Below, in pieces: positions 300 to 24,617 of a DNA stretch of 64,000 nucleotides. This DNA comes from Candidatus Enterousia sp. (lineage in GTDB: Bacteria > Pseudomonadota > Alphaproteobacteria > Rs-D84): NCBI GenBank assembly GCA_045614145.1, contig JAZLCH010000011.1, positions 4,198 to 68,197 of the forward strand, in the 5' to 3' direction. Below the pieces are notes generated by a model. The model was given only the letters and a program-made list of their open reading frames with translations. It was not told where the DNA came from and ran no database searches. A program made the translations under genes and the position numbers. The first letter of the stretch is position 1. Each line of letters opens with the position of its first letter.

Positions 300-1548
300 A
301 ACTTTGAATGTTTTTTTATATAGCCAAAAAGTTGGCAAACTGTCCGAAGACGATGTAGGTTATTTGGAATTTAAATACGCAAATGATGCAAAATGGCCGA
401 TATCAGTTCGTATGCCGGTTAGAACAAGAAAGTATGATCGTCGTTACGCTGAACCATTCTTTGATAATCTGACACCAGAGGGTGATGCGCTGAAGCTGAT
501 AGCGGATAAATTCCATATATCAGATGATAATACTTTTTCTGTGCTGGACAAGATTGGTGGCGAATGTGCGGGGGCTATTTCACTGTATCCAGATGAGATG
601 CCAAATGTCGATGAAGATTTGGTGGAAATTACAGACGATAAACTGGTAAAAATAATTCAAGAATTGCCCCAAAACCCATTGCTGACGGGTATTGAGGGTG
701 CGCCTAGATTATCATTGGCCGGCGCGCAATCTAAATTCGCTGTGGTAAAGGGCGTAGATGACAAATACTATCGTTCCACGAACACTCACCCCACAACGCA
801 CATAATAAAAATCGTAAATCAGCGTTTTCCAGAATTACTGAATAATGAATTATTCTGTATGAAGTTGGCGGCAAAAACATTGTTAGGCATGGGAACGGTT
901 CCTGTGGCACTGCGTGCAACGGGTGAACATAAATATCTGGAAATTGAACGCTATGACAGACGTGTTGTAGCAGATGGGCGGGTCGAAAGGGTTCATCAGG
1001 AAGATTTTTGTCAGATTTTGGGGTATTTGGAACGTAGCAAGTATCAAAAGGATCGTGGGCCAGGAATCCGTGATGTCTATAATGCAATCCTGGAATATTC
1101 GTCTGCACCGGCAACTGATGCATACAGATTTGTTGAATTGGTAATGTTTAACTATCTGATTGGTAATACGGATGCACATGCCAAGAATTTTTCAATATTG
1201 CACGAAGATTATGGAAAGAACATATTTTTGGCGCCGGCCTATGATTTGATTTCGGTAGAGGTGTATCCAGAAACAACAGTTGATCATGAAACTGCAATGG
1301 TTATAAACGGCAAGGCTAAATATGATGCTATGACCAAGAAAGACTGGTTGGCATTATATGAACAGCTGGAGCTGAATCCGGCACGCGTTTTGCAGACACT
1401 TCGGGACAGATTAAGCGGGGTGCTGGGGGCGGCCAAAACATTGCGTGATGAATTGAATGCAGATGTGCTGACTAAATCGGATATCTATGATAAGATTGTA
1501 GATATCATAGAAAAGCGTTATTCGGCCATCATCGCTGATAATAAATAA
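292..1548 (+). CDS. hipA: HipA-family Ser/Thr kinase toxin
   Basis: 418 aa; HipA C-terminal signature LIGNTDAHAKNFSIL and GAQSKFAV; translationally coupled to upstream HTH gene. Confidence 0.8.
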   Translation: MTRTLNVFLYSQKVGKLSEDDVGYLEFKYANDAKWPISVRMPVRTRKYDRRYAEPFFDNLTPEGDALKLIADKFHISDDNTFSVLDKIGGECAGAISLYPDEMPNVDEDLVEITDDKLVKIIQELPQNPLLTGIEGAPRLSLAGAQSKFAVVKGVDDKYYRSTNTHPTTHIIKIVNQRFPELLNNELFCMKLAAKTLLGMGTVPVALRATGEHKYLEIERYDRRVVADGRVERVHQEDFCQILGYLERSKYQKDRGPGIRDVYNAILEYSSAPATDAYRFVELVMFNYLIGNTDAHAKNFSILHEDYGKNIFLAPAYDLISVEVYPETTVDHETAMVINGKAKYDAMTKKDWLALYEQLELNPARVLQTLRDRLSGVLGAAKTLRDELNADVLTKSDIYDKIVDIIEKRYSAIIADNK

Positions 1549-3798: not shown

Positions 3799-5862
3799 AT
3801 GTACACACCAGCACCAATGAGAACATCAGTCTTAGACTTTATTCAGAAAAGCATGGGATGCCAGTTTGTTATTCCTGTATATCAGCGTAATTATACATGG
3901 AAGGCAAAGGAAGAAGTTGAAGTATTTTTAGATGACACAGAACGCCTTTTGTATAAAGAAAGTTCAGCGCATTTTTTTGGTATTGTAATATACCTAGGCC
4001 TGCCACGAGCATTTAATCATCATGAGTATCAAGTTGTGGATGGGCAACAGCGCTTAACAACGGTCTTTTTGACATTGTATGCACTAAAGCATATTGCTCA
4101 GCAAGATATCTATGATTCTACATTCCCCGATAAATTAGATGATATGTATTTGATAAATAAATACATAGAAGATGCTTCTATGAAATTAAAATTGAAGCCG
4201 CTGGTATCAGACGACAATGTATATGTAAAAATTGTTGAAGGAAATCTAAAAAACATAAGTCCAGAAGAACAAAATACAAATGTGTATAAAAATTATGTTG
4301 CGATTAAGAATAGAATAGGTAAATGGTTGTCAGATGATTATAGCCTAGAAGCTATTTTAGATGCGTTACAGAAATTATACATAGTTACAATTCCATTGTT
4401 AAATACAGATGATCCACAGCAAATATTTGAAAGTATCAATTCAAAGGGGGCTCCTTTAACTGCTGCGGATCTTATACGTAATTATTTGTTGATGGGCGAG
4501 GAAGATGTTGAACAAGAACGTTTGTATGAAAAATATTGGAAACCGTTAGAAGCAAAGGTTGAAGATTCTAAAGAACTGGAAGAGTTTTTCAGATTATTTT
4601 TAGCAAATCAAACATTCGATTTGCCAAAAAAGAAAGAAGTGTATAGTGCGTTTAAATTATGGTGCGATGATGAGGAAACAAGCAAACAGGAGATTTTTGA
4701 AAAGATAAATCAATATATGGGATATTTTTGGGCACTGTATCGGGAAGAAGATGCAATAAAAAATCTGCCAGCATTACGTTTCTTTAGACGTAATCCGTCT
4801 GTCTTGCCCGCACCATTCTTAATGGAGATGTATAAACTATGCGATGAACAGAAAATATCGCCAAGAACATTGGATGTAATTATTGATCTTGTAGATATTT
4901 ATTTGACCAGACGTGCACTTGCCGCAAGAGACACAAGTGAAATTACAAGATTTTTCCCAAGTTTCTTAAGGCATGTTATTTTGGCAACGGGCGACAAATA
5001 TGAAAATATCGTAGATAATGTAAAGTATTTCTTAATAAATGAAACAAGATTTACGGCAATGAAAATGCCAACAGATCAGGATTTAAGAGACTTTTTATCA
5101 CATAACGATGCTTATATTTTAAAATGTACCCGTTCTGTTCTGGATAAGCTTGAATTGGTTGATAATTCTGCCCAGGTTGATTTATCAAATTTAAGTGTAG
5201 AGCATTTGTTGCCACAGACTGCGACGGATTATTGGAAGAAATATGTTCCAGAGGATGAGTATGATCAGTATGTCGGTTTGATTGGCAATTTAACCTTGGC
5301 AACCAGTCTTAATAATAGCCAAATGGGCAATGACGAATGGGACAAAAAGAAACAAATACTAGAACAAACAAGACATATTAAATTAAATGAAGAACTGTTG
5401 TCTTATAATGAATGGACAAAAGCAGACATAGAAAACCGAACTCAACAAATGATTGATAGGATTATAAAACATTATCCATATCAAGAGTCTTCTTTGTCTG
5501 AGAATCCTTTGCCGCCAGAAGTTCAGCAACAATATGCTCAGGCACAAAGGGATGCACGTAAAGCTAGAAAGTTGTCACGGGTATCTCGCAGTCGATTTAA
5601 TTTTGACATGTTAGATATTCCTAATGGGGCAACTTTGGTTTTTATAAAGGATGAGTCTGAAACTTGTACAGTAATATCTGAAAATACCGTTTCATACAAG
5701 GGGGCAGAGTATCGTTTAAGTCCATTAGCAAAAGAGTTGCTGCATAAGCGTGGCATCAATTGGAATACCGTACAGGGGCCAGCTATGTTTAAATATAATG
5801 GCGAAGTTTTGTCAGAAAGGCGAGACAGAATAGAGAGAGATGAATTAGCTTGGTGGGAATGA
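3799..5862 (+). CDS. DUF262 (ParB-like, DGQQR motif) / DUF1524 (His-Me finger) protein, GmrSD-like type IV restriction family, with extra C-terminal domain
   Basis: VVDGQQRLTT motif near N-terminus; SVEHLLPQT His-Me finger motif; about 130 aa extra C-terminal region. Confidence 0.75.
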   Translation: MYTPAPMRTSVLDFIQKSMGCQFVIPVYQRNYTWKAKEEVEVFLDDTERLLYKESSAHFFGIVIYLGLPRAFNHHEYQVVDGQQRLTTVFLTLYALKHIAQQDIYDSTFPDKLDDMYLINKYIEDASMKLKLKPLVSDDNVYVKIVEGNLKNISPEEQNTNVYKNYVAIKNRIGKWLSDDYSLEAILDALQKLYIVTIPLLNTDDPQQIFESINSKGAPLTAADLIRNYLLMGEEDVEQERLYEKYWKPLEAKVEDSKELEEFFRLFLANQTFDLPKKKEVYSAFKLWCDDEETSKQEIFEKINQYMGYFWALYREEDAIKNLPALRFFRRNPSVLPAPFLMEMYKLCDEQKISPRTLDVIIDLVDIYLTRRALAARDTSEITRFFPSFLRHVILATGDKYENIVDNVKYFLINETRFTAMKMPTDQDLRDFLSHNDAYILKCTRSVLDKLELVDNSAQVDLSNLSVEHLLPQTATDYWKKYVPEDEYDQYVGLIGNLTLATSLNNSQMGNDEWDKKKQILEQTRHIKLNEELLSYNEWTKADIENRTQQMIDRIIKHYPYQESSLSENPLPPEVQQQYAQAQRDARKARKLSRVSRSRFNFDMLDIPNGATLVFIKDESETCTVISENTVSYKGAEYRLSPLAKELLHKRGINWNTVQGPAMFKYNGEVLSERRDRIERDELAWWE

Positions 5863-8132: not shown

Positions 8133-9395
8133 ATGGCGGAAAGGTTTTATCTTTGCATTGATTTAAAGAGTTTCTTTGCCTCGGTCGAAGCGGTTGACCG
8201 TGGGCTGGACCCATTTACAACAAACCTGGTCGTGGCGGACCCGTCACGGGGGCGGGGTTCGGTCTGTCTGGCGATAACACCGGCGATGAAGGCCCTGGGG
8301 ATTCGCAACCGTTGCCGGGTCTTTGAAATCCCGCGCGGGGTCGAATACATCACCGCAATGCCCCGCATGAAAAAGTATATGGAGGTATCCGCCCAGATTT
8401 ACGGGATTTATCTGCGCTATATTTCGCCCGAAGATATCCATGTCTATTCCATTGACGAATGCTTTATCGATATCACGCCTTACTTGAAAATGTATAAGCG
8501 GTCGCCCAAAGAAATGGCGATAATGCTGATGGATGCGGTACGGGCCGAGACGGGCATATGCGCCACCGCCGGCATTGGTACGAACCTGTTCTTGGCCAAG
8601 GTTGCGCTGGATATCACGGCCAAGAAAGTCCCCGACCATATCGGATGCCTGGATGTAGAATCGTTCCGGGAACACCTGTGGCACCATCGCCCGATAACAG
8701 ATATCTGGAACATCGGGGCGGGCATTGCACGGCGACTGGAAAAATACGGTGTTTATGACCTGTATGGGGTGACACAGATGCCGGCCGAAACACTATATCG
8801 TGAGTTTGGCACAAATGCAGAATACCTGATTGACCATGCGAACGGCATCGAGCCATGCACGATTGCCGATATTCACAATTATCAAGCGAAATCACATTCC
8901 CTGTCCAACGGCCAGATTCTGTTCGAAGACTATAACTTTGAAGATGCTATGATTGTGATGCAGGAAATGGTGGATAACCTGGTCTTGGAATTGGTGGAAA
9001 AGAACTTGGTGGCGGATGAGATATCGCTGACTGTGGGGTATTCACGTGATGTTCGTCGCCCAACCGGGGGCAGTCGTAAATTGCCAGCGCACACATCGTC
9101 TTACAAGACATTGGTGGCGGACTTTGTGCGACTGTATCAGGAAACGACCGATAAACGCACGCCGATACATAAATTGACGGTGGGGTTGGGGAACCTGGTT
9201 GATGCGGATACGGTGCATCTGCAACTGGATTTATTTGCGGATACAATGGCGGATGAACGTGAAAGCAAATTGCAACACGCATTGCTGGATATCAAGGGGA
9301 AATATGGCAAGAACGCTGTCCTGCGTGGCATAAATTATCACGAGAAGTCCACCGGTCGCAAACGTAATACTTTGATTGGGGGACACAATGGCTGA
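8133..9395 (+). CDS. Y-family DNA polymerase (UmuC/UvrX-like)
   Basis: CIDLKSFFASVEAV and SIDECFIDIT catalytic motifs. Confidence 0.8.
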   Translation: MAERFYLCIDLKSFFASVEAVDRGLDPFTTNLVVADPSRGRGSVCLAITPAMKALGIRNRCRVFEIPRGVEYITAMPRMKKYMEVSAQIYGIYLRYISPEDIHVYSIDECFIDITPYLKMYKRSPKEMAIMLMDAVRAETGICATAGIGTNLFLAKVALDITAKKVPDHIGCLDVESFREHLWHHRPITDIWNIGAGIARRLEKYGVYDLYGVTQMPAETLYREFGTNAEYLIDHANGIEPCTIADIHNYQAKSHSLSNGQILFEDYNFEDAMIVMQEMVDNLVLELVEKNLVADEISLTVGYSRDVRRPTGGSRKLPAHTSSYKTLVADFVRLYQETTDKRTPIHKLTVGLGNLVDADTVHLQLDLFADTMADERESKLQHALLDIKGKYGKNAVLRGINYHEKSTGRKRNTLIGGHNG

Positions 9396-9782: not shown

Positions 9783-10760
9783 TTAATAATCATAAGGAAT
9801 ACCGCCTAACTCTATCAATTTTAAATTGCCTTCGTATGGTATATTACGTACATATACCTTACATATTTTTTTCTTTATCGCTTGTTCTGCACCAGACCAT
9901 GTGCCGCTTCGGCTTCCAAACCCCGATTTAACAACAAAAGTGTGCTCTGACATTGCGTAAATATACTTGTTGCGGTTCATAAAATGTATTGTTGCATCCA
10001 TTTTAGTTAATGTACGCAAAGGATTGATCTCTGAAATCAACAACATCAATTTATTTTGTATGGCATCAATAATAGTTGGATTTTTTAATGAAATGCGCAT
10101 GTTTTTTGAGAACTCTATAACAGGAAGTTTTTCGGATAATGCGGTTTTTTCTGAAATGCTATCAATTCCTTCAGCGCCACCAGAAACTACCCCAAGATTT
10201 TTCATTAGTTTCTGTTGTTTTATCAGATTTATTGTCCACTCTGTATCAGCAGAATCAACTTCTCTTGCACCAACGAAACCAGCGTATTTTAGTTTCGAAA
10301 GAGTTATGTCACCACAGTAATAAAATAATGGGGGTTCTCGCAAGGAGTTTGGCATGTTTTTTAACCCAGATTTTAACTGATTAGGGTATTCAGAATCAAA
10401 GATTGTGCATATTTTGATGCCATTTTTTTCAAGTTTTTCTATTTCAAATGAAATAGAAGAGGCTCGTTTGAATAAGGTAACTATTTTTTCTGCCAATTCT
10501 TTTGTTATTCTTAACTTGTTGACCATAAACTCTTGGTCTAATTCGTTTATATGGTCGAATTTTATTTTTTGATTTTCAGAAAAAGCGAACAAATCCATTG
10601 TTTTTGGAGTGTTGTATTCATCAATGGCCTTTAACAAATCATAAAATTCTTTATGTGATAACGGTGATATAGAAGATGCGTTAGAACTACTTTCTAAACA
10701 CAAAACTATTGTATTATGTACAGCTTTTGACATTTTAATTTCCTTCACTTGTGTCTGCAA
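9783..10760 (-). CDS. DprA/Smf-like (SLOG superfamily) protein
   Basis: GVVSGGAEGIDSISEKTAL, LISEINP, FMNRNKYIYAMSEHTFVVKSGFGSRSGTWSGAEQA match DprA Rossmann core; start overlaps upstream RecQ-PRTase gene by 26 nt. Confidence 0.75.
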   Translation of the reverse strand: MQTQVKEIKMSKAVHNTIVLCLESSSNASSISPLSHKEFYDLLKAIDEYNTPKTMDLFAFSENQKIKFDHINELDQEFMVNKLRITKELAEKIVTLFKRASSISFEIEKLEKNGIKICTIFDSEYPNQLKSGLKNMPNSLREPPLFYYCGDITLSKLKYAGFVGAREVDSADTEWTINLIKQQKLMKNLGVVSGGAEGIDSISEKTALSEKLPVIEFSKNMRISLKNPTIIDAIQNKLMLLISEINPLRTLTKMDATIHFMNRNKYIYAMSEHTFVVKSGFGSRSGTWSGAEQAIKKKICKVYVRNIPYEGNLKLIELGGIPYDY

Positions 10761-12768
10761 GACAAAATGGTGTTACACTATTTGCCCCATGTCTCATTAA
10801 TAAATCTCCACACACAGTAATAGTCCATCTTGAATCGACCATATCGTCTATCAGCAATATGTTATTGCCATCAATCGATGTTTCTTCTGGTATAGAAAAC
10901 GACTCTCTTGCATTTCTGCATTGAAATGCAGAGTTTTCCATATTTTTTTGCTGGGGTGCGTCGGTTTTCTGGACTAGCTCCACAAATTGAACACCAAGCA
11001 TTTTAGACAGTTTCTTAGTAAAAGTTTTAACTTTGTCACTTCTTAAAGAAGGAACGCAAGTTATCAAATCGATATTTCTGTCTTTTATGAGATCGGCTAA
11101 AACTTCTACTGATTTTATAATCAACTCCTCTCTAAAATCATTATTTCTATATTTGTCTTCTTGAACCATGGTTCCATAACCACTATCCCCATATTTGCAT
11201 AAACATATACCTGGTGTTAGTAGATGTTCAATTTTTTTTGAATCTGGCCATAGTTTTCTTGGTTCTATAATCAGAAATTGGTTTTTTAAGAAAATTTGTG
11301 CCTTTTCGAGAGATGCTTTTGTATAGGTCACAGGTATCAGTGGCTTCCCAAGACAATTAGAGCATTTGCCACAATCTCTCGAAGTTATATTGTTCAAACA
11401 ATCTACAGTATATCTTAGCAGGCATTTGTCAGTCTTTGTTATGTCATACATTTGCTGCATTTCTTGCCTTCGCATATTGGTAATGGCATTGTATTTATTG
11501 CGATCGTATTCAAATATTTTTGTGGGAACACGATAAAACCTAGAACCGTCTTTTCGTAAATAGCCATCAAATTCTAGAAAATCCAACGCATTTTGAATAA
11601 TTTTGCCCCGATAATTAAGTAGGTGCGATATTTCTGCTTTACTCTTGCCATCTATATTCATCAAGACATTTTCGCAGACGTCCTCTCTTGGGAAGGCATT
11701 GTCTATAAAATGATTAAGTATTCTAGTGTCGTCATCTGATGACATAAGAATAGCATATGCCGATGGAATGCTGCGTCCTGCACGACCAATTTGTTGATAA
11801 TAAGACACTATATTTTGTGGCCTCTGAAAATTAATAACAAAACCAATGTCCGGTTTATCATATCCCATACCTAATTTTATGGTTGCGATTATTGCTTTTA
11901 TTTCATTGTGTTTGAATTTATTTATTGCCTCACTATTTTCTTTTTCTCTTGACTCGGCAGAATAATAACTTGCCGTTGCAATACCGTTATTAGATAAAAA
12001 AGTATGCAAGTTTTCACAATCTCTACGGGTCAAACAATAAATTATACCAGTTCCAGGCAAATCATTCAAATGATCTAACAGCCATGCGTATTTTTCGCCT
12101 TTTGCAGACAAATCAACCAGTGATAAATGCAATGATTCTCGCATAAGATCACCACGAGATACAAATAAGTCCGAGCCCAAATGTTCCTTTAAATCTTCTA
12201 TTACCCGATCATTTGCGGTTGCAGTAGTACATAATACAGAAGTGGTATCTGGGAAGATTGCTATGATTTTGTACAAACGACTGTATTCGCGTCTGAAATC
12301 ATGTCCCCAATCGGATAAACAATGTGCTTCATCAATCACAAATAAATCGATAGCTAAATCTGTAATGATTTCTTGTAATTCACCGCCAAATAGGGTTTCG
12401 GGTGTCGTAAAAAATATATCTATACAACCATTTTTTAGATCGTCTAATATTTTTGCTCGCTCGGCCGTATCTTTTATTGTTGAATTTAGAACCGAACACT
12501 TTAAATTAAATTTTTTAGCGGCTTCAATCTGGTTGTTCATTAGTTCTAATAGGGGGCTAACAACAAATGTCATTCCCTTGCCATCCTGGCGTAATAATTT
12601 GGCGGATATAAAATAAATTAGACTCTTTCCCCAACCTGTTTTTTGTACAACTAAAGTACGCTTGTGTTGCAAAGTAGATTCTATGGCTTCAAATTGTCCT
12701 TCTCTAAATGTTGCCTGAGAGCCATAGGCATGCTTCAATAATTGTAAACTTTTTGTTTTTAGATCCAT
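10735..12768 (-). CDS. RecQ-family helicase fused to C-terminal phosphoribosyltransferase (ComFC-like) domain
   Basis: KTGWGKS Walker A; VIDEAHCLSDWGHDFR (RecQ motif II); Cys cluster; C-terminal ILLIDDMVD...PRTase-like motif. Confidence 0.8.
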   Translation of the reverse strand: MDLKTKSLQLLKHAYGSQATFREGQFEAIESTLQHKRTLVVQKTGWGKSLIYFISAKLLRQDGKGMTFVVSPLLELMNNQIEAAKKFNLKCSVLNSTIKDTAERAKILDDLKNGCIDIFFTTPETLFGGELQEIITDLAIDLFVIDEAHCLSDWGHDFRREYSRLYKIIAIFPDTTSVLCTTATANDRVIEDLKEHLGSDLFVSRGDLMRESLHLSLVDLSAKGEKYAWLLDHLNDLPGTGIIYCLTRRDCENLHTFLSNNGIATASYYSAESREKENSEAINKFKHNEIKAIIATIKLGMGYDKPDIGFVINFQRPQNIVSYYQQIGRAGRSIPSAYAILMSSDDDTRILNHFIDNAFPREDVCENVLMNIDGKSKAEISHLLNYRGKIIQNALDFLEFDGYLRKDGSRFYRVPTKIFEYDRNKYNAITNMRRQEMQQMYDITKTDKCLLRYTVDCLNNITSRDCGKCSNCLGKPLIPVTYTKASLEKAQIFLKNQFLIIEPRKLWPDSKKIEHLLTPGICLCKYGDSGYGTMVQEDKYRNNDFREELIIKSVEVLADLIKDRNIDLITCVPSLRSDKVKTFTKKLSKMLGVQFVELVQKTDAPQQKNMENSAFQCRNARESFSIPEETSIDGNNILLIDDMVDSRWTITVCGDLLMRHGANSVTPFCLADTSEGN

Positions 12769-12942: not shown

Positions 12943-15459
12943 TTATCCGGATATCAATTTTGATAGGGCTTGAATAAGTTTCGCTTTTTCTTGGCTGCCA
13001 TCGGTTCTAAAGCGAATAAGCGGGATGTTATAGGTGGCAAAAATACTGTCTTTCATTCTATCGCGTTCATATTGTTTTGTGTTTTCGTGGTGGTATTTGG
13101 TGCCGTCAACCTCTATCCCTAATACAGGCTTTTTAGTAACGCGATCAAATATCAGAAAATCGCAATGTGTCATGATATTGTTTGCATAACTGTATTCTTC
13201 GTTGGTTAGTTTTGATAAATCGTTGAAAATTGATTTTAATGGCACGTGCAACGCAACATCGAAGATATTAAATTGTTCTGTTTTTAATACTTCTGTAATT
13301 AAATCGTACATAGCGTTTTCGCTGTCAAATTCTGAAACACTGGACTTTATCATTTGTCTGCGTTTTTCCGCATAGCACTTGTATAAACAATCAAACACTG
13401 AACTTATATCACTTTGTACGACGGTCAGGTTATTATAGTTAATATAGTCAATCAGGGCGCCAATATTAGTGTCTTTTTCTTCTTCGTTGCCATTGGTTAC
13501 AACGATTAGTTGGTCTATGGCACGTGATATGGCCACGTTTAGTCGATTGGACTGATCCGCAAATTCTGAAATTTGATTATCAACCATAGATAGAATGATT
13601 ATGTTTTTCTCGCGTCCCTGGAATTTATCAACCGTATCGGCCTGAACCTTTGTATCCTTGAATATGTTTTGCAGGGCAGTAACCTGATTCCTGTATGGTG
13701 TCACAATGCCCAGACTGTCATCGTTTACATTTAATTTTTGTTGCGGAATAATCTCGTCAACAATAACGTCAATTTGTCTGTGGTTGGTATGGTTTCGGGC
13801 GTGATTGCCGATTTTAGTTTTATATACAACCAAGGGCGTACGGTCGGTATTTGGCCTGGACAGGGATATAAGCTGGCCACCATAGAAGCGTTGGTTACAA
13901 AATTCAATAATCTTTGGGTGACATCTATAGTGTTCCCGTAATATAACAGATGGTATGTCTTTGAACAGTTTTATAACGGTCGACAGCAAGCTGTGATTTT
14001 TATACCTGTAAACCTCTGGAATTTCAAATTTATCAAAAATCGCATCGGTTGTTTTTGCGTTTTCTGTATCCACAACGTTGGGCAGTTGTTTTAAGTCGCC
14101 GACAATTACTGCGTTCTGTGCGCACCCCAATGCCAGTGCACCAGTAACTAAATCAACCTGGGATGCCTCGTCAATTATCACATAGTCAAAAATCCCATCA
14201 AATAGGCAATTTGAAAGGGAATATGTCGTACTAAGAATTACGGGGTATGATTTCAGAAAATCTTTATCGGCCGGATTTGTGGCCCGTTCCAACTTTTTGT
14301 ATTTTTTTGCCAGATTATCTTTGACCAACTGCATAGACCAGTCAGTATATTGTTTGATTTTTTCTGAAAAATTAAATTTTGTAAGTTTCTTTTCTGATTG
14401 CTTGATGTCCTGGGACAGGGTTGCTATGCGCTTTGTATACCAAGCTTGTTGACAGGTTTTTATCACCGTTTCAACATCGCTGTGAAAGAATTGTTTATCT
14501 TTTATCTTGTATTTATAACGAAATATTATACGTTTAATCAGGTTTGGTCGACGATTGCGCTGGGCAAAAATCTCGTATGCCAGCCAAAGCCGCATCGCCT
14601 TGTCATCACTCAGGTGACTGATATTGGATTCATTTATATTTGGGTTTTGTACATGAAAGTGCTGGTATTCGGTGTTCAGCGCATCAAATTCTTGTTTGTT
14701 TTTCGCCGTTCTGTTTTGTTCGGCCAGCATGGTCAGCAGTTTTTCATGCAGTGTTTTGATTTTCTTTATGGTGGATTTTGCCCATTTGTTGCTTCTGTGC
14801 CAATCAGACATATCTGGTAATTTGTGATCTGTTTGGTTAAATGCGGCAATGTTTGCACTGCTGCCCAGAAAAGCCGCCATAAATCCCAAATCGTATTTTT
14901 GCAGTTTTTCCAGCACATTGGCGGTCGCAGAATTGTTTGCAGAAACCACGGCAACCGTTTTCCCCGCCATTACAATATTTGCTATGATATTCAGTATAGT
15001 TTGCGTTTTTCCGGTCCCCGGCGGCCCTTCAATAATAGACAGCTGGTTGGTCAGTGCATTATCAACGGCCTGCTGTTGGCTAATATTAAATCCAAAGGGG
15101 TACAACGGCGTATCTGATATCTTGCTGTTATTGTCCCTGTATTCGCCAGATAAAAAGTCATATAAAACGGTTTCTTTGGATTTTTCGTTAATACGATTAA
15201 GGTTTTTAAGCAAAATATTCTGACCATAATCATTGTTCAAACCTACGGAATCCGCAATCGAACGCAAGTATGCAAATACTTTTTTTGCTCTTTGCTCATC
15301 CTGTTTTATTGGTTCTAATCTAATACTACTTCTGCTGTAAGAGTATGACCGACCGTTTTTAAACATGACATTTATTTTATTGCCATCGGGTTCTATCAGC
15401 AGAATATCCTTGGTCAGATCTTCGCCTTTAATAAAAATCTTATGTGTTTCTGTATCCAT
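12943..15459 (-). CDS. SF1 (Upf1/Dna2-like) helicase with C-terminal DUF559 endonuclease-like domain
   Basis: IEGPPGTGKTQT Walker A; VIIDEASQ motif II; C-terminal LGIEVDGTKYHH...IPLIRFR DUF559 motif. Confidence 0.8.
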   Translation of the reverse strand: MDTETHKIFIKGEDLTKDILLIEPDGNKINVMFKNGRSYSYSRSSIRLEPIKQDEQRAKKVFAYLRSIADSVGLNNDYGQNILLKNLNRINEKSKETVLYDFLSGEYRDNNSKISDTPLYPFGFNISQQQAVDNALTNQLSIIEGPPGTGKTQTILNIIANIVMAGKTVAVVSANNSATANVLEKLQKYDLGFMAAFLGSSANIAAFNQTDHKLPDMSDWHRSNKWAKSTIKKIKTLHEKLLTMLAEQNRTAKNKQEFDALNTEYQHFHVQNPNINESNISHLSDDKAMRLWLAYEIFAQRNRRPNLIKRIIFRYKYKIKDKQFFHSDVETVIKTCQQAWYTKRIATLSQDIKQSEKKLTKFNFSEKIKQYTDWSMQLVKDNLAKKYKKLERATNPADKDFLKSYPVILSTTYSLSNCLFDGIFDYVIIDEASQVDLVTGALALGCAQNAVIVGDLKQLPNVVDTENAKTTDAIFDKFEIPEVYRYKNHSLLSTVIKLFKDIPSVILREHYRCHPKIIEFCNQRFYGGQLISLSRPNTDRTPLVVYKTKIGNHARNHTNHRQIDVIVDEIIPQQKLNVNDDSLGIVTPYRNQVTALQNIFKDTKVQADTVDKFQGREKNIIILSMVDNQISEFADQSNRLNVAISRAIDQLIVVTNGNEEEKDTNIGALIDYINYNNLTVVQSDISSVFDCLYKCYAEKRRQMIKSSVSEFDSENAMYDLITEVLKTEQFNIFDVALHVPLKSIFNDLSKLTNEEYSYANNIMTHCDFLIFDRVTKKPVLGIEVDGTKYHHENTKQYERDRMKDSIFATYNIPLIRFRTDGSQEKAKLIQALSKLISG

Positions 15460-15507: not shown

Positions 15508-16296
15508 TTAGGGATGTTGATTCTCCAACTCCATTACAATCTCCAACAAATCGTCTGGGATATAGCTTTTGGCCTGGTCGATTAGTTCGGGTGGAGTGCC
15601 GTAATAGGCTTCGGCTACAGAGCCTGTGATTGCGGCAATTGTATCACTGTCGCCACCGATAGAGATTGCGTTGCGGATTGCATCTTCAAAATCCGTTGAT
15701 TCAAAGAAACATTGCAGGGCGGGCGGTACCGTTCCCTGGCACGATGAATCCCAATCATAGTATTCCTGTAAATCCGCCAAGCAGTCGCATGTCGGGTAAT
15801 AGTTGCTGCGGATGTATTCGGCTATGTCGTCTTTGCTGTGGCCAGTGCGTGCCATGAATATAGCAACGGCAACCGCTTCGGCACCCTTGATGCCTTCGAT
15901 ATGGTCGTGGGTTGGGGATGTGACCATGTATGACAGGCGTTTGACTTCTGCGATATTTTCGCCAAACCACCCAGCCGCAGATACTCGCATTGCCGCCCCG
16001 TTGCCCCAGCTGTTATACGGGCCCATAGTCGGGTCGTTCAGCCATTCCCAAAACATACCGCCATAGCCTTTGTTCGGATATGCCTTGCCAACAACACGCA
16101 TGGTGTCGGCTGTAATTTGGCTCAGGTCGCCACCTTGCTCACGCCATTGTTTGATTGCGCTGGCCACCGCTATGGACATACATGAATCATCCGTGATATA
16201 GCAACGGTCGGTCATAAAAGGGAAGTTCTTGGACCGGATATTTGCAAATTCATAAACAGACCCGGCAATGTCACCAATAATCGCACCAAACAGCAT
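15508..16296 (-). CDS. ADP-ribosylglycohydrolase (DraG/ARH family)
   Basis: MLFGAIIGDIAGSVYEF N-terminus and overall ARH-like sequence. Confidence 0.75.
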   Translation of the reverse strand: MLFGAIIGDIAGSVYEFANIRSKNFPFMTDRCYITDDSCMSIAVASAIKQWREQGGDLSQITADTMRVVGKAYPNKGYGGMFWEWLNDPTMGPYNSWGNGAAMRVSAAGWFGENIAEVKRLSYMVTSPTHDHIEGIKGAEAVAVAIFMARTGHSKDDIAEYIRSNYYPTCDCLADLQEYYDWDSSCQGTVPPALQCFFESTDFEDAIRNAISIGGDSDTIAAITGSVAEAYYGTPPELIDQAKSYIPDDLLEIVMELENQHP

Positions 16297-16367: not shown

Positions 16368-18620
16368 TTAGGCCACTAATATATCTTCTCTGATAATATC
16401 ATTCCAATCACGAGAGACGGCTTCTTGATTTTTAAATCTAAAAATGCTTTTGCTCAAGATTTCTTCACGAAATACTTGATTCTCGTACAACATATTAAAG
16501 TCTGATACACTCATAAAACAGATTTTTTCAAATAAATCGGTTTCCTTGGTGTTTATAATGTCATAAAGATTCTCTTCTTGGGCATTGGTGATATAGATAA
16601 ATATTGTAAGACTGGCAATTAAAATATCTATTTTAGAACGCCGTATTTCAAACATCGGTGGTGGGGCCGGCGTGTCCGTTTTTGGTTGTTTTGGGTTAGA
16701 TGTTGTTTTAGAGGTAGGCTTTTTTTCTTCCTTTTTAGGCTGTTTTGCTTCGTTTTTATATAACGGAATCTTATCAATGATAGCCAATAGCTTTTCAGAC
16801 ATTTTTAAAGAGATTTGCACGCTAAAGTTGTTTGAACGTTGAAAGTCGCGTTTGAGTTTTTCTGGGTCTAAATCCAGGGTAATATATCGCATCAGATCAT
16901 CGTATGTAACAGATTTCATATCCCCATCTAGGTATAAATATGTAGCGATAAGGTTTTCTTCTAAATTTTCTTTTGGAGATTTTTTTCGGTCCCCATTCTT
17001 TTCCGAGAAGCTTTTCATATTTTCAAAATAACGTTTTGGATTAAAATCAAAGACATAGCATTCGGATTTGCCAGCGTACGGACTCTGACAGCGGAATATA
17101 CTTTGAAAGAAGTCTTGGGCAGAGTGTTTGTCTTGCAACATTACAACAGAGTTTAGCTCTTTAATTGTAACACCTGTATTTAGCATGCCGCATGACAGGC
17201 AAATGATTTTATCGGTTTTTTTCTGTAGTTCTTTAAATTTCTCTAAAGACTTTACACTGCTTCCCACACCAGCACCTGTGGCATTAATTATTTCATAGTC
17301 CTTAAAGAATGTGTGATTCTTAAGAAAGGTTTCCATTGCGCAAACACTGGCTACATCTGGAAGAAACCACAAGGATTTTTTATTCTTTGATTTCATGTCA
17401 CCATAATAGGGCAATTTGACATTTGGACGTTTGGTTTTGGTTGTGCCGTCTGTTTTTCCCAGGTCAAAGGTTTCGCCACACATAAAGTCAATTATGTTTT
17501 TGACCCAGTCTTCTTGGGCAAATTGTTTTGTGTCTGAGTTTACATTAAATATTTTGTTTATATTGAATTCTTTTTCGCCAAATTCGTTAATTAAATCGCA
17601 TACGCCGTCAAAGGTATAAATTTTCATATCTGGCAGGTCACGATATGGATTTTCTTCTGCTGGCCCGGTCCAGCCATATTTGGCCTTTTGTTCGTCTCGA
17701 TATGTCCAGTTAAATATTTGCCAAGGCTTGTATTCTGAATCTTCCAGGATTTTAAATGGCGTTCCCGACAGTTCAAGCAAGCGCTTGTACTTTAATTTTT
17801 CTAATATTTTTTTCGTATTTGTAGCACGGGTTCCGTAGTGAGCTTCGTCAATTATCAATAAATCCCAATCGATATTGGCGATGTTCTTTATTTTATCTGT
17901 AAAGCCGGCAATATCACCTGGCTTAATATCGCTGGCTGCTGCTTCGTCATCTTCTGCGGCCAATTGTTTATTCGCCAATAACAATGGGATAGAAATAAAG
18001 ACGATATTTTTGTTGTTGGGGTCAAAAGAGGTCAGGTTATCTTTATTTATAAAGTTTATGCCACGAAAATCATGATGGCTCAGCAAATCTGTCTTCCATC
18101 CATCTTCCACAGCCACTTTCCATGTCAAAATTAATGCGTTTTTATATGCGGCCCGTTTAAACAGCTGGTATGCTGTAAAGGTCTTTCCAAAACGCATTTT
18201 GCAATTCCACAGAAATTTGTCGCTTTGTTTAAACTCATCCAAGGTGGCTTTGATGCAATCGTCTTGCTCTTTTCGTGGCGGAAAGTTTTCGGTGCGTTTT
18301 AAATCATATACTGTATTGGTTTCTAGTGCGACAATTATGGCTTTTATTATATTAACACCATTTTCTTGTCCAAAATCAAATGTTTCACGACCGTTTACAT
18401 CTGCAGGTCGTTTATATCCTAATTTTTCTAATTCGTTATGGATTAATGTATCAAGATTTTTGGTTTTATGTGGGATGTTAAAATTATGCTTCACAAACAA
18501 TGTTTCTGTGGCTTGCTTGCGATATGTATGCTTTATATATTCATCAACATTGCCTGCCGTTTCCCCAATAGATATGTAATTATTTTTAGAATCTTTTGTT
18601 TTTATTACATAAATATTCAT
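16368..18620 (-). CDS. N-terminal T5orf172 (GIY-YIG-like) domain fused to SF2 ResIII-type helicase
   Basis: NIYVIK...YISIGET...LIHNELEKLGYKR...GRETFDF T5orf172 pattern; RFGKT Walker A; LLIIDEAHYG motif II. Confidence 0.7.
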   Translation of the reverse strand: MNIYVIKTKDSKNNYISIGETAGNVDEYIKHTYRKQATETLFVKHNFNIPHKTKNLDTLIHNELEKLGYKRPADVNGRETFDFGQENGVNIIKAIIVALETNTVYDLKRTENFPPRKEQDDCIKATLDEFKQSDKFLWNCKMRFGKTFTAYQLFKRAAYKNALILTWKVAVEDGWKTDLLSHHDFRGINFINKDNLTSFDPNNKNIVFISIPLLLANKQLAAEDDEAAASDIKPGDIAGFTDKIKNIANIDWDLLIIDEAHYGTRATNTKKILEKLKYKRLLELSGTPFKILEDSEYKPWQIFNWTYRDEQKAKYGWTGPAEENPYRDLPDMKIYTFDGVCDLINEFGEKEFNINKIFNVNSDTKQFAQEDWVKNIIDFMCGETFDLGKTDGTTKTKRPNVKLPYYGDMKSKNKKSLWFLPDVASVCAMETFLKNHTFFKDYEIINATGAGVGSSVKSLEKFKELQKKTDKIICLSCGMLNTGVTIKELNSVVMLQDKHSAQDFFQSIFRCQSPYAGKSECYVFDFNPKRYFENMKSFSEKNGDRKKSPKENLEENLIATYLYLDGDMKSVTYDDLMRYITLDLDPEKLKRDFQRSNNFSVQISLKMSEKLLAIIDKIPLYKNEAKQPKKEEKKPTSKTTSNPKQPKTDTPAPPPMFEIRRSKIDILIASLTIFIYITNAQEENLYDIINTKETDLFEKICFMSVSDFNMLYENQVFREEILSKSIFRFKNQEAVSRDWNDIIREDILVA

Positions 18621-18630
18621 ATCTCAATCC

Positions 18631-19146
18631 TTATAATTCTAGCTCTGTCTGTACTGGTTCTGCATTTAACATCTGTTTTAGTGTTTCAAATTGTCCAGTT
18701 TTCCAATCTTTAAATTTCAAATCGTCACCATTGCAGTCCAACATGGTCAATGTGTTGCCACAAATAATGTTGGTTTCCAAGATTTCGACTATGTTTTTAA
18801 TGTTTCGCCAACAAACACATTCTTTTTTTTGAATTTCGGCAAGTACAATACCCAACATTCGACATCTGCATTCTTCGACATTGTCTGGCATAATATCCAC
18901 ACCGTATATTGATTGCAGGGCACGAACACAGTCATTAATGTCTTTACAAAGCCTTAATTTTCGGCTTAGGATCTCAATAATAAAGTTTCCGTTTCCACAT
19001 GCGGGTTCAAGAAATGTTGCATCAATGTTCTTCCATATTTCTTTGGGAATCAGATTACACATATTGCGCACAATCTTGCGTGGGGTAAAAACTTCCCCCA
19101 GGTCCCGAACACGTGTACAAGATTTAATCAAGGAACACTTACTCAT
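18631..19146 (-). CDS. truncated N6-adenine methyltransferase paralog (motifs X and I only, no NPPY)
   Basis: GEVFTPRKIVRNMCNLIP and canonical EPACGNGNFI; start overlaps upstream MTase stop (ATGA). Confidence 0.5.
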   Translation of the reverse strand: MSKCSLIKSCTRVRDLGEVFTPRKIVRNMCNLIPKEIWKNIDATFLEPACGNGNFIIEILSRKLRLCKDINDCVRALQSIYGVDIMPDNVEECRCRMLGIVLAEIQKKECVCWRNIKNIVEILETNIICGNTLTMLDCNGDDLKFKDWKTGQFETLKQMLNAEPVQTELEL

Positions 19147-20731
19147 CGTCTGTATCTATGTTATCTGAAAGCACAGTATCTTTATTCATTGGTTTTACCA
19201 TAGATTCAATAAAGGCAATTTCATTTTCAGAAAGGTTATATTTTTTATACAATTTCTCATCTGTCCATTCTTCATTGAAGTTTTGCATTGGTATCAGATG
19301 AAAGACAGATTTTGTTGCGTTCATAGTGCCTTTGCCAAAATACAACAAGACCTTAAAAAAATTGGTTTGCATGTAAGATAGGCAATTGTCTCGATTTTGT
19401 TTTGTTGGAAAGCCGCCTATTAATAAAAAGGTTGCTGTGCAAATTTCATTTGGCCCTGCTAAAATCACTTCTGGATAATTTATAGCATTTGTAGAATATG
19501 CTTTGCTGAAAAATATCTTGTATTTATCTACGTTTTCTTCGTTACAAGTCACAACATTCTTGTTCACGTATCCTTGAACTCTTCTCGCTCCACCTTTTAC
19601 TCCGGTCACACCATGAATCTTTACACTATTTTCAAAAGGTTTATCGGATAGATTTGCTCCTGTTAATCTAGTTGGCTCATTAAAAAGCCATGTCTCTATA
19701 CCAAATGGCTTGATGGACGATACTAACTCTGAAAATTTGTGGGCATCGTTAAGTTTGTCTAGCATAGATAATATTCGACCATCTCTTATAACAAATTTAA
19801 AATAGTCGTTTTTAAGAAACTGTGAAAAATGTGTTTGTACGCCAGTATTTGATGTGTAGTGGTATTGTGCCTTTCCATTATAATCTTTGTCCCATAGAAA
19901 GTAGCATACTCCACCATCAATGTGTACTCCAGAAAAACACATGGTCTCATCTTCAAAATCATGCATTTCTTTGATTCTGCTATCAACAATCATTTTTTGT
20001 CTAAAAAGTTCTAAACCTCGTCCACCCATCATCCATCGCGAAGGTATAATAAAGCTCAGATATTTTGGAGCCAAGCTAATCGCTTGTTCAATAAACTTGT
20101 TGTATATAGGCGCAGCTCCATCAGCTGAACCCCCTCTACCATCAGTTAATTGATATGGAGGGTTTCCTATGATTACATCAAATTTCATATTTTCTACCCC
20201 CTTTTTTGCAAAAAAATCAGCCACGGCTTGCGTGTCTTTTATGAAATGGAAACATTGTTTTTCTATCTGTGCGCCCGATTTATCCGTGACATATTCTCCC
20301 AAAGATTCATCAAAGAATATATTGTCAATGTCAGCAAATGCAGGATTACAGGTATAGAGCGTACGCTTTGTTACACGATAGCCACGATAGGATACGGCAA
20401 TACCAAAAATACGTTCTTTCAGTATTTGGTGTAATATACCTTCCTGTCGCATTGTAAAGTCATATACAGCATTCTTGTCATCTGGTAATTGTTTGAATTT
20501 TGCTCGCAGTATTCTTACGACCGCTTCTCGTAAAAATATTCCGTCTTTACATGCCGGACATAATATTTTGGCATTATCATCCAGCCATACGGATTCCGGA
20601 ATCAAGTCCAGCATGGAATTAACAACCTTCAGTGGGGTTGGCGTTTCTGTATTAACCATACACTGCAGCTGTTCTAATATGTCAACACGTTTTGTCATTG
20701 TTGGGCCCTTGGCATCGTGGCCCCATTTCAT
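19139..20731 (-). CDS. gamma-class N6-adenine DNA methyltransferase, Eco57I-like, with TRD
   Basis: TPTPLKVVNSMLDLIP; degenerate motif I CPACKDGIFL; catalytic IIGNPPYQ. Confidence 0.75.
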   Translation of the reverse strand: MKWGHDAKGPTMTKRVDILEQLQCMVNTETPTPLKVVNSMLDLIPESVWLDDNAKILCPACKDGIFLREAVVRILRAKFKQLPDDKNAVYDFTMRQEGILHQILKERIFGIAVSYRGYRVTKRTLYTCNPAFADIDNIFFDESLGEYVTDKSGAQIEKQCFHFIKDTQAVADFFAKKGVENMKFDVIIGNPPYQLTDGRGGSADGAAPIYNKFIEQAISLAPKYLSFIIPSRWMMGGRGLELFRQKMIVDSRIKEMHDFEDETMCFSGVHIDGGVCYFLWDKDYNGKAQYHYTSNTGVQTHFSQFLKNDYFKFVIRDGRILSMLDKLNDAHKFSELVSSIKPFGIETWLFNEPTRLTGANLSDKPFENSVKIHGVTGVKGGARRVQGYVNKNVVTCNEENVDKYKIFFSKAYSTNAINYPEVILAGPNEICTATFLLIGGFPTKQNRDNCLSYMQTNFFKVLLYFGKGTMNATKSVFHLIPMQNFNEEWTDEKLYKKYNLSENEIAFIESMVKPMNKDTVLSDNIDTDDE

Positions 20732-20860: not shown

Positions 20861-21472
20861 TTATTTATCAATCATTATATTGTTATCTGATATATATTTA
20901 TTAAGGGTTGGAATGCTCACTTTTAGCATTCTTGCCAATTTAACCTTGGTGGTTCTATTAAGCATTTCTTGTTTTATACGCTCGTCTGATCCATCTAGCT
21001 TGTGTTTACTATTGCGGGCCCCTGGTGTTCGTCCCAAACGTTTCCCTTGTGCCCGTCTGTGCGCCAGGGCTTCTTTAGTACGCTGGGAAATCATATCTCT
21101 CTCGATTTCTGCGGCCATACCAAAGGCAAAGGCCAGAACCTTAGATTGAAGGCTCTCGTCTAATGAGTAGCCGTCCTTTACTGAATAAACACGTACATTT
21201 TTATCCAGCAGGCGTTTCAGAATATCAAACAGCATAAACAACCTGCGACCAAATCGTGATAGTTCAGACACTATAATTACATCCCCTGGTTGAATTTGCT
21301 TTAATAATTTACCTAGTTTTCGTTTCTTGGGCTCGACAGTTCCCGATATGCCGTCGTCTATGATGTATTTATCGATAGCCAGGCCCAGTGCGCGGGCTTT
21401 GGCTTCGACGCCCATGCGCTGGTTAGCAGTGTCCTGGTCGTCTGTGCTGACACGTAAGTATGCGTATATCAT
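20861..21472 (-). CDS. serine recombinase (resolvase/invertase family)
   Basis: MIYAYLRVSTDDQD catalytic Ser motif; C-terminal HTH. Confidence 0.85.
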   Translation of the reverse strand: MIYAYLRVSTDDQDTANQRMGVEAKARALGLAIDKYIIDDGISGTVEPKKRKLGKLLKQIQPGDVIIVSELSRFGRRLFMLFDILKRLLDKNVRVYSVKDGYSLDESLQSKVLAFAFGMAAEIERDMISQRTKEALAHRRAQGKRLGRTPGARNSKHKLDGSDERIKQEMLNRTTKVKLARMLKVSIPTLNKYISDNNIMIDK

Positions 21473-21487
21473 TGTTTCTCCTTTGAT

Positions 21488-22519
21488 TCACTCAACCTTT
21501 ATCCCGGCGATTAGTTCGCGTTGGCGGGATGGGGAGATGTTGCCGTAATTGCATCGGGTGGTGCCGATACTGCTGTGGCCAAAGTCTTGTTGCAGGGCGA
21601 CTATGCGGTCGTCGTGCGTTATGTTTTCAATGTGTCTGGCACGGGTGCGGCGGACACTGTGAATGCTTAGTGGGGCTAGTCCATTTGCCACACATGCGCC
21701 GTTAAATATCTGATTGGCGGTGCATACGGATATTGGCTGGGCCTTTACAATGCGTTCAAAGATGTTCTGTTGGAACGGATTGGTTGCAATCTTGGGAAAA
21801 AGCGGGCCTGATTTATCAAAACCATATTCATTGACCAGCATGTCCCGCCAATCCAGTACAAATTGCCGCAGGTCTGGGATGTTAAGCAAGGTTGCCTGGC
21901 GTACACGACAGAACTTTACATTCTTGATTTTTCGTGGGTTTATGTCCAGAAAGTATACACCAACCAACGGCTCCTGCATAATCGTATCAATTCGAAAGTT
22001 ACACAGTTCGCTTACACGTGGGCTGGTCAGTATTACCAGCGCAACCAGTGCCCGATTTCGCAGGTCTGTCACTGTTTGCGCTGGCATAGTACGAACGGCA
22101 TGCAACAGTTGTGAATATTCGTGATGCGGTTTATATCCGGATGCGTTGGCCCGATTAATCTCGTTCCGGGTCAGGGTCAGATAGTCGGCATCGTTTCGGC
22201 GAATGCGTCGGCCAAATGGCTCGTCCGCCAGCCAGCGAATGAACTTTTGCGTTTCGGATGTTATCCGGTGCATATAGCTGGGGGATACAGACTGTTGCCG
22301 CAGATTGGCCAAGAATACCTTGGCCATGTCTGGGGTATAGCGATCCAGGTCTTGAAAGTCCGTTAAAACCTCGAACGCACGCAGATATTTGCGCAGGGCC
22401 AGCAGGGTCTTGTTATCGGCCAGCTTGGTCCGGCGGACGTGTTCCAGGTATTTTTTAACGATACGCTCGTTACCGGGATTGTATTTGCGATGGTTAGATT
22501 CGTTCAGAATTGATTGCAT
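21488..22519 (-). CDS. tyrosine recombinase / phage-type integrase
   Basis: C-terminal HSVRRT...GHSSIGTT...Y catalytic pattern. Confidence 0.8.
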   Translation of the reverse strand: MQSILNESNHRKYNPGNERIVKKYLEHVRRTKLADNKTLLALRKYLRAFEVLTDFQDLDRYTPDMAKVFLANLRQQSVSPSYMHRITSETQKFIRWLADEPFGRRIRRNDADYLTLTRNEINRANASGYKPHHEYSQLLHAVRTMPAQTVTDLRNRALVALVILTSPRVSELCNFRIDTIMQEPLVGVYFLDINPRKIKNVKFCRVRQATLLNIPDLRQFVLDWRDMLVNEYGFDKSGPLFPKIATNPFQQNIFERIVKAQPISVCTANQIFNGACVANGLAPLSIHSVRRTRARHIENITHDDRIVALQQDFGHSSIGTTRCNYGNISPSRQRELIAGIKVE

Positions 22520-24540: not shown

Positions 24541-24617
24541 TGGTGCCGGTTGTCGGACTTGAACCAACGACCTACTGATTACAAATCAGCCGCTCTACCA
24601 GCTGAGCTAAACCGGCA
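24541..24617 (-). tRNA. tRNA-Thr (anticodon TGT)
   Basis: cloverleaf: acceptor GCCGGTT/AACCGGC, anticodon loop TTTGTAA, T-loop TTCAAGT, CCA end. Confidence 0.9.

Follow-up and report, generated by a model that had tools for sequence, protein, structure and literature searches.

We analysed a 64,000-nucleotide (nt) stretch of contig JAZLCH010000011.1 from Candidatus Enterousia sp. (assembly GCA_045614145.1), hereafter the window, and focused on three neighbouring genes that encode an Eco57I-like DNA methyltransferase (MTase) of 530 amino acids (aa), a 171-aa protein resembling one half of such an enzyme, and a 750-aa protein in which a T5orf172 domain of the GIY-YIG clan is joined to a superfamily 2 (SF2) helicase. 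We propose, with a probability of roughly 0.6, that the three genes encode a single ATP-dependent restriction-modification (R-M) machine, in which the modules of Type ISP enzymes are distributed over three polypeptides and a GIY-YIG/T5orf172 domain replaces the Mrr-type nuclease. An earlier annotation made from the DNA letters and their open reading frames (ORFs), here called the sequence-only reading, had described this operon as R-M-like, and that description is supported by the linkage of the genes, by fusions among their relatives, by a motor resembling that of LlaBIII, by swapping of the recognition half of the MTase between strains, by insertions shared with Type I operons and by a location in a defence island. 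The system is best filed as a very common, uncharacterised, split and GIY-YIG-armed relative of Type ISP enzymes with an added half-MTase subunit. The gene limits in the sequence-only reading were exact for all three ORFs, and Pfam confirmed its domain calls, namely Eco57I, the N-terminal part of an MTase, and T5orf172 with ResIII.

Synteny and gene fusions link the three genes

Relatives of the helicase number more than 4,000 in a collection clustered at 90% identity and are covered by 468 representatives at 50% identity (E <= 1e-30). Most are approximately 830 aa long and combine T5orf172/MUG113 with ResIII, and lengths above 1,100 aa are reached by roughly one in four of the 150 best 50%-identity representatives. 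The window MTase and small protein were searched against a set of 80 genome loci containing the helicase, together with loci from contig lookups and plasmid loci; synteny was scored at the 63 loci where the MTase gene was complete and sufficient upstream DNA was available. The small gene, the Eco57I-like MTase and the T5orf172-helicase followed one another in this order on one strand in 62 of these 63 genome and plasmid loci, the exception being L013, in which a different MTase-like gene lies upstream. In the window clade (L005 and L008, with helicases 53-55% identical), the order is MTase, small gene, helicase, as in the window. The hosts span Bacteroidota, Bacillota, Actinomycetota, Pseudomonadota, Spirochaetota, Fibrobacterota, Verrucomicrobiota, Chloroflexota and Planctomycetota, together with one Heimdallarchaeota metagenome-assembled genome (MAG); MAGs with the label Alphaproteobacteria bacterium contain proteins nearly identical to those of the window. 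The triad of Aurantimicrobium is inserted neatly between nusA and ylxR/infB.

Furthermore, the genes are fused in several relatives. Single chains with the order T5orf172-ResIII-Eco57I were found on a Lactiplantibacillus plantarum plasmid (L088, 1417 aa) and in P0337 and P0296, and the MTase is fused in frame to the T5orf172-helicase in L011, L016 (Collinsella tanakaei YIT 12063) and L070. Such fusions of helicase and MTase in both orders support the prediction of a single R-M machine. At other loci (L025, L036, L037, L051, L072, L079 and L081), additional genes are inserted between the MTase and the helicase. DUF1016/YhcG occurs at three loci, and RhuM, Bro-N, SLFN_AlbA_2/HATPase_c_4 and a HigB/HigA-like pair were also seen. 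Insertions of DUF1016 and RhuM, among others, have been reported within Type I operons as well (PMC9881135).

Within the window, the MTase and small genes overlap by 8 nt (ATGAGTAA, with ATGA inside it) as read from the sequence. The small gene terminates with TAA at 18633-18631 and the helicase ATG lies at 18620, and inspection of the ORF revealed no in-frame start upstream of this ATG. The overlap that the sequence-only reading had placed at both junctions is thus present at the first, and the 12-nt overlap it gave for the second is in fact a 10-nt spacer; the tight packing of three co-directional genes on the minus strand holds despite it. A scan for sigma-70 promoters and terminators gave nothing above the shuffled expectation and was uninformative.

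The T5orf172-helicase resembles a Type ISP motor in structure

Pfam assigned T5orf172 to aa 3-93 of the 750-aa protein (E = 5.8e-5; 24 bits against a cut-off of 20) and ResIII to aa 113-289 (E = 1.5e-14), with a weak Helicase_C match. The ATPase motifs are intact, comprising Walker A (KMRFGKT, aa 141-147), DEAH (aa 258-261), SGTP (aa 285-288) and motif VI (QSIFRCQ, aa 506-512), and motifs I, II, III and VI (QxxFRxQ) were invariant in an alignment of 33 sequences. When an AlphaFold2 (AF2) model of the protein (predicted local distance difference test score, pLDDT, 80.6) was compared with the PDB by Foldseek, the top match was the Type ISP enzyme LlaBIII (4xqk; E = 2.5e-13 over 772 aligned columns), followed by the ATP-dependent restriction enzyme SauUSI and then by SNF2 and XPB motors.

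The N-terminal domain shows a beta-beta-alpha-beta-alpha topology in the AF2 model. Across 108 such domains, Y4, G19, D57, L64 and E79 were invariant, and the window protein keeps Y4, G19, T21, D57, H61 and E79. These results support the claim that the helicase bears T5orf172/GIY-YIG at its N-terminus in place of a PD-(D/E)xK nuclease. The sequence-only reading would have been refuted by a loss of all GIY-YIG catalytic residues together with homologs never associated with MTases; most core residues are retained, and the homologs nearly always lie beside an MTase gene. Of the core residues, the Tyr of GIY, the Gly of YIG and the Glu (Y4, G19 and E79) are present and the Arg is not, as discussed below. 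T5orf172 is a proven nuclease elsewhere, in ICP1 Gp88/Odn, where both Arg and Glu are kept (PMC8263062).

Beyond the motor, the helical C-terminal domain contains the conserved residues Y676, L696, F697 and F708, and Pfam detected no nuclease in it. In single-chain relatives the MTase directly follows this domain, and we infer that it couples or docks the restriction (R) subunit to the MTase.

The methyltransferase has a constant N-terminal part and an exchangeable recognition half

Eco57I was the sole Pfam family matching the MTase (E = 3.4e-30), and the PADLOC model MTase_II PDLC03375 matched its aa 179-515 (E = 8.9e-41); the match to an orphan methylase family that the sequence-only reading had named as a refutation was not obtained. 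In the window protein, motif X reads TETPTP, motif I is non-canonical (ILCPACKDGIF, aa 56-66) and motif IV reads GNPPYQ (aa 189-194, with NPPY at aa 190-193); a variable C-terminal region follows. This order of X, I and IV before the target-recognition domain (TRD) is that of the gamma class and bears out the assignment of the enzyme to this class and not to the beta-class Mod proteins. In the family as a whole, the corresponding motifs are NDEVFTPP (X), FLDPxxKSGVFLRE (I) and IIGNPPYQ (IV), followed by a poorly conserved region and a conserved C-terminal helix; NPPY is intact in the window and invariant across the family.

The S-adenosylmethionine (SAM) pocket is more divergent. Throughout the family, Lys occupies the place of the first Gly of motif I (M.TaqI has a comparable motif, ACAHG), and alignment to BrxX places Ala at the usual motif II acid. 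In the window clade, motif I is further changed from LDP to LCP (aa 58-59; 20555-20560) with loss of the acidic residue, and ITE after motif II is changed to VSY (aa 113-115; 20387-20395), or to ISY in L005 and L008. These changes in the region of the pocket are kept among members that are approximately 50% identical to each other (L005 and L008).

Comparison of four strain variants of one island (the window, L091, L175 and L179) revealed a sharp boundary within the MTase. The helicases are 99% identical, the small subunits 92-100% identical, and the MTases 94-100% identical up to NPPYQ; after this motif, identity falls to 13-61% in 40-column blocks and rises again to 68-84% in the final block, in which the conserved C-terminal helix ends. 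The MTases of the four variants differ in length (530, 514, 544 and 501 aa). Moreover, the C-terminal half of the L091 MTase resembles that of the otherwise distant L008, and C-terminal halves therefore appear to move between lineages. At 90% identity, the clusters to which the window proteins belong contain 2 MTases, 53 small subunits and 23 helicases. By these comparisons, the C-terminal half behaves as a swappable cassette, a pattern that would be expected for diversifying target specificity, as in a working R-M or defence system. A constant N-terminal half combined with an exchangeable C-terminal half would offer a simple route to new specificities.

A conserved half-methyltransferase forms the third subunit

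The Pfam match of the 171-aa protein to N6_Mtase is confined to the N-terminal part of the profile (positions 23-98 of 311; E = 8.8e-6). It contains motifs X (GEVFTP), I (LEPACGNGNF, canonical), II (YGVDI) and III (NIICGNTL), in agreement with a family consensus of LEPACGxGNF for motif I, YGVD/EI for motif II and NIIxG[D/N]xL for motif III. The protein ends after motif III and a short tail, in which an F-x-E-W motif is conserved (LKFKDW in the window protein), and NPPY and a TRD are absent. It is 44% identical to the N-terminus of the MTase over 48 aa (E = 2e-10). An AF2 model (pLDDT 85) matched only the N-terminal part of the MTase domains of CamA, BrxX, DrdV, LlaBIII, LlaGI and HsdM, weakly (E = 0.1-0.5), and the best PDB match by sequence was the Type I HsdM 3ufb. 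Weak matches to MmeI_Mtase were seen only in the small subunits of relatives.

The sequence-only reading had called this protein a truncated MTase paralog; paralogy to the MTase N-terminus is borne out, and truncation is not, the protein being full length within its own large family. We also discarded the notion of a decayed leftover, as the protein is complete, conserved and present in 62 of the 63 loci, and the notion that its G(N/D)xL is a degenerate NPPY, as this sequence is motif III and the protein stops before motif IV. The gene encodes a third subunit that is conserved across the family, and its near-universal presence shows it to be functional; it could supply SAM binding in trans, regulate the enzyme or bridge it to the motor.

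A natural counterpart was found on a 268-kb viral contig (L160, 6001-7763), where an adenine MTase is split over two genes. The first encodes a 247-aa N-terminal half with motifs X, I, II and III and the tail; the second, 20 nt further on, encodes a 332-aa C-terminal half that starts MKFDIIIGNPPYQ and ends in the C-terminal helix of the family. No helicase lies near this pair. From this gene pair, the small family is the natural N-terminal half of a split MTase, and the C-terminal half is a natural unit as well. The split point falls within approximately 15 residues of the recombination boundary between strains.

Stand-alone homologs of the small subunit, approximately 140-155 aa long and 42-57% identical over the core, also occur in the early regions of phages and prophages (L092, 7001-7417; L093 and L094, 7001-7444; viral contigs L095-L174; phage records H26-H38). 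Within 6 kb of the homolog, 69 of the 83 viral loci contain neither an MTase nor a helicase. The stand-alone proteins keep every residue of the SAM-binding motifs and do not have the F-x-E-W tail. Such tail-less homologs are found in gut phages and in Prevotella Lak megaphages, where they are annotated as hypothetical. They may be anti-restriction or SAM-targeting proteins.

Taken jointly, these observations admit a reading that we put forward tentatively and regard as rather doubtful: the enzyme could be a composite MTase with two alternative SAM-binding halves, in which the small subunit is the canonical N-terminal half that pairs with the NPPY/TRD half, and the N-terminal domain of the MTase itself is a diverged duplicate re-purposed toward the nuclease-motor. 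Which N-terminal half is used, or whether it is occupied by SAM, would then decide how far the system modifies and how far it restricts, and the phage copies of the N-terminal half could exploit this, acting as anti-restriction or SAM-targeting proteins of a new kind.

Relation to known restriction-modification systems

The closest parallel is provided by the Type ISP enzymes LlaGI and LlaBIII, which likewise combine a nuclease, an SF2 translocase acting on double-stranded DNA (dsDNA), a gamma-class N6-adenine MTase and a C-terminal TRD, in the same domain order as the single-chain relatives of the window proteins. In contrast to the three separate ORFs of the window, Type ISP enzymes are single polypeptides; their N-terminal nuclease is an Mrr-like PD-(D/E)xK domain and not T5orf172/GIY-YIG, and they do not have the extra half-MTase subunit. 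Type I systems share the separation of modification from an ATP-dependent motor-nuclease subunit, as well as the inserted DUF1016 and RhuM genes. They differ in using an HsdS subunit, whereas the TRD of the Eco57I-like window enzyme lies within the MTase, and in the family of their nuclease; no Methylase_S or HsdS was found in the operon or its neighbours by Pfam, PADLOC or NCBIfam.

MmeI-like clusters of YeeA, YeeB (helicase) and YeeC (GIY-YIG) were put forward in 2009 as predicted R-M systems whose subunits are separate (PMC2731913). These clusters resemble the present system in joining an adenine MTase with TRD, an SF2 helicase and a T5orf172 nuclease in a conserved operon located in defence islands. 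YeeA, however, is large and MmeI-like, whereas the window MTase matches only Eco57I in Pfam and none of the MmeI_* domains. Helicase and T5orf172 reside on different proteins in the Yee clusters, T5orf172 being C-terminal in YeeC (PMC9973331), whereas in the window they are fused and T5orf172 is N-terminal. No small half-MTase is described for the Yee clusters. A Vibrio homolog of the YeeA (DnmA) cluster has been reported to affect phage sensitivity, according to a citation in PMC9973331. Relatives of Type ISP and Type IIL enzymes with helicase subunits and GIY-YIG nucleases were mentioned, without analysis, by Sisakova et al. in 2012 (PMC3553950).

Among PADLOC models, PDLC03626 ("Type IIG REase-MTase", 1359 positions) aligns with the window MTase at positions 859-1359 and with the helicase at 342-593. 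The L. plantarum single chain scores 401.7 bits on this model, and its 306-aa upstream partner scores 237 bits on MTase_II PDLC03390. From these matches, the fused form, the C-terminal half and the N-terminal half are already catalogued as putative genes in REBASE-derived models. To our knowledge, true Type IIG enzymes do not have a helicase motor. The split form goes unrecognised as a system, the helicase having no system-specific PADLOC match and no NCBIfam match of any kind. The statement in the sequence-only reading that the operon is not a described R-M type therefore stands in that no experimental study was found, and requires correction in that the Yee predictions, PMC3553950 and the PADLOC models cover relatives.

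Proposed mechanism and alternative explanations

In the machine that we propose, the exchangeable C-terminal half would let the 530-aa MTase recognise a short target, where the enzyme would produce N6-methyladenine by means of its NPPY motif, and the small subunit would act alongside it, supplying or regulating a canonical SAM-binding half-domain. Methylation would protect the host DNA. On unmethylated foreign DNA, the site-bound MTase would recruit or activate the T5orf172-helicase, which would translocate on dsDNA with ATP and cut away from the site via its N-terminal nuclease. Type ISP enzymes methylate one strand and, driven by ATP, translocate until those from head-to-head sites collide and cleave. 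Purely by analogy to the Type ISP and Type IIL relatives, an asymmetric site with methylation on one strand is probable here, along with a need for convergent enzymes in cleavage. Complex formation, translocation, the mode of cleavage and the role of the small subunit are steps that we infer.

If true, this reading would extend the ATP-dependent restriction enzymes by a large and phylogenetically broad class (468 clusters at 50% identity), and the natural three-gene and one-chain forms would constitute a series for studying how recognition, motor and nuclease are coupled. The half-methylase, together with its tail-less phage relatives, could bring to light a new point of control between restriction and modification and a new strategy against restriction. 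Annotation tools label the genes as orphan MTases and generic helicases, and such systems would therefore be under-counted in gut and environmental genomes.

Several observations weigh against this proposal. The predicted catalytic Arg in helix 1 of the nuclease domain (aa 28), which is Arg in 104 of the 108 N-terminal domains, is Tyr in the window, and the domain is also changed at E31 (to H) and W80 (to T). SAM binding by the window MTase is not assured, because the motif I acid is lost and motif II carries Ala. Neither single-sequence nor profile searches of the PDB with the helicase returned a match, and hence no solved R-M enzyme; a Lactococcus single-chain relative likewise had no PDB match by sequence. 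The resemblance of the translocase to LlaBIII is therefore structural only, with no sequence-level similarity to LlaGI or LlaBIII detected. A single-sequence PDB search with the MTase gave no match, and the sole sequence matches of its profile were the BREX (bacteriophage exclusion) proteins BrxX/PglX, weakly. The B. subtilis DnmA/YeeB/YeeC cluster, the nearest analogue, showed no restriction (PMC9973331). Finally, a literature search, with most subscription journals outside its scope, found no experimental work on any member, an absence that is not proof.

The changes in the nuclease domain bear most directly on an alternative that we consider unlikely, in which the nuclease is dead in the window copy, the MTase, with or without the small subunit, is an orphan or epigenetic methylase, and the helicase is carried along. 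The loss of Arg28 with the substitutions at E31 and W80 would fit this explanation, and the study of B. subtilis DnmA/YeeB/YeeC reached the same conclusion for that cluster (PMC9973331). The nuclease of the window may indeed be altered or weakened, judging from these residues. Nevertheless, all three ORFs are full length and the ATPase motifs are intact. The four exceptions with Tyr in place of Arg (the window, the nearly identical L091, the 83% identical P0002 and the 43% identical P0016) have in common the variant DxYIKH(T/S)YRK; its retention in P0016, only 43% identical overall, therefore indicates selection and argues against simple decay. In addition, recognition halves have been exchanged between otherwise identical strains, which is sensible mostly if discrimination still matters.

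Quite unlikely, in our estimation, is a methylation-marked defence that acts without translocation-coupled cleavage, for example by a replication block similar to those of BREX or DISARM (defence island system associated with restriction-modification), by nicking or by an abortive response, with the GIY-YIG domain in another role. The restriction of the PDB profile matches of the MTase to BrxX/PglX and the presence of BrxX among the fold matches of the small subunit are in favour of it, and the change from Arg to Tyr could fit a non-catalytic or nicking function. Against this, the scanned neighbouring genes include no homologs of the partner genes of these systems (PglZ, BrxC/BrxL, DrmA/DrmB/DrmC), the Y, G, R and E of the GIY-YIG core vary little or not at all in the family, and the structure matched most closely is that of a Type ISP enzyme that cleaves.

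A Type III system of Mod and Res, suggested by the Pfam name ResIII for the N-terminal lobe of the helicase and by the co-transcription of an MTase carrying its own TRD with an SF2 helicase, is very improbable and was rejected on motif order and nuclease position: Mod is beta-class and Res carries a C-terminal PD-(D/E)xK nuclease, whereas the window has gamma order (X, I ... IV, TRD) and an N-terminal GIY-YIG domain, together with a third conserved subunit, and EcoP15I was outside the top 50 structural matches. Of the resemblance to Type III and ISP systems drawn in the sequence-only reading, the Type ISP part consequently survives, with LlaBIII as the top Foldseek match and with the single-chain relatives, and the Type III part does not. 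We give equally little credence to a homing or otherwise selfish module, or to a repair helicase that has no part in defence. In its favour are the frequency of T5orf172 in homing endonuclease genes (PMC10448857), including those of phages, and the adjoining recombinases. Against it stand the obligatory association with an MTase whose recognition half is hypervariable, the fusions of helicase to MTase, and the chromosomal spread over phyla in defence islands.

Genomic surroundings of the operon

The region of the window surrounding the operon is a defence island by Pfam and PADLOC matches, and its features are listed together with those of the operon in Table 1.

Table 1 Positions of the operon, its domains and neighbouring features in the window
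Feature	Position	Strand	Remarks
MTase gene	19139..20731	-	530 aa, intact ORF
MTase N-terminal part, aa 1-195	20147..20731	-	Constant between strains; Pfam Eco57I, motif conservation
MTase C-terminal part, aa 196-530	19139..20146	-	Catalytic remainder, variable target-recognition region, C-terminal helix WTDEKLYKKYNLSENEIAFIESM
Small-subunit gene	18631..19146	-	171 aa, intact ORF
Small subunit, SAM-binding half of gamma-class MTase	18631..19146	-	Pfam/PADLOC N-terminal MTase matches, alignments, AF2 model
Spacer between small-gene stop and helicase start	18621..18630	-	10 nt, GGATTGAGAT, read from sequence
T5orf172-helicase gene (R subunit)	16368..18620	-	750 aa, intact ORF
T5orf172 (GIY-YIG clan) nuclease domain, aa 1-100	18321..18620	-	Pfam, 108-domain alignment, AF2
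SF2 helicase/translocase core, aa 113-525	17046..18284	-	Pfam ResIII and Helicase_C, alignment, Foldseek
Helical C-terminal domain, aa 526-750	16368..17045	-	Conserved alignment columns, AF2
HipA-like kinase	292-1548	+	
GmrSD-type Type IV restriction enzyme	3799-5862	+	
Y-family polymerase (IMS/ImuB-like)	8133-9395	+	
PsyrTA-type pair	9783-12768	-	Complete; PsyrT E = 2.9e-220
MkoA-like SF1 helicase fused to DUF2726	12943-15459	-	
ADP-ribosylglycohydrolase	15508-16296	-	71 nt downstream of helicase gene
Mpi-like serine recombinase and tyrosine recombinase	20861-22519	-	Directly upstream of MTase gene
tRNA-Thr	24541-24616	-	Approximately 2 kb beyond recombinases

The match to the Mpi-like serine recombinase (241 bits) lies below the 272-bit cut-off. 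Eco57I-type genes are enriched among inversion targets (PMC9881135), and the adjacent invertase prompted us to consider a programmed inversion or shufflon. This candidate was rejected: inverted repeats within 9-26 kb amounted only to chance-level matches of 16-30 nt, and the small gene is complete and on the same strand as the MTase. Likewise, no att-like direct repeats were found near the tRNA-Thr gene.

PsyrT consists of a RecQ-like helicase and a phosphoribosyltransferase domain, and its DprA-like partner (DNA_processg_A) overlaps it by 26 nt. The position of the ADP-ribosylglycohydrolase gene is kept in all strain variants of the island (L091 and L175-L181) and not in more distant relatives. 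Downstream of the triad, a slot with variable cargo holds the MkoA-like helicase-DUF2726 gene followed by PsyrTA in the window, a PIF1-like helicase in L175 (9372-10673) and nothing in L179.

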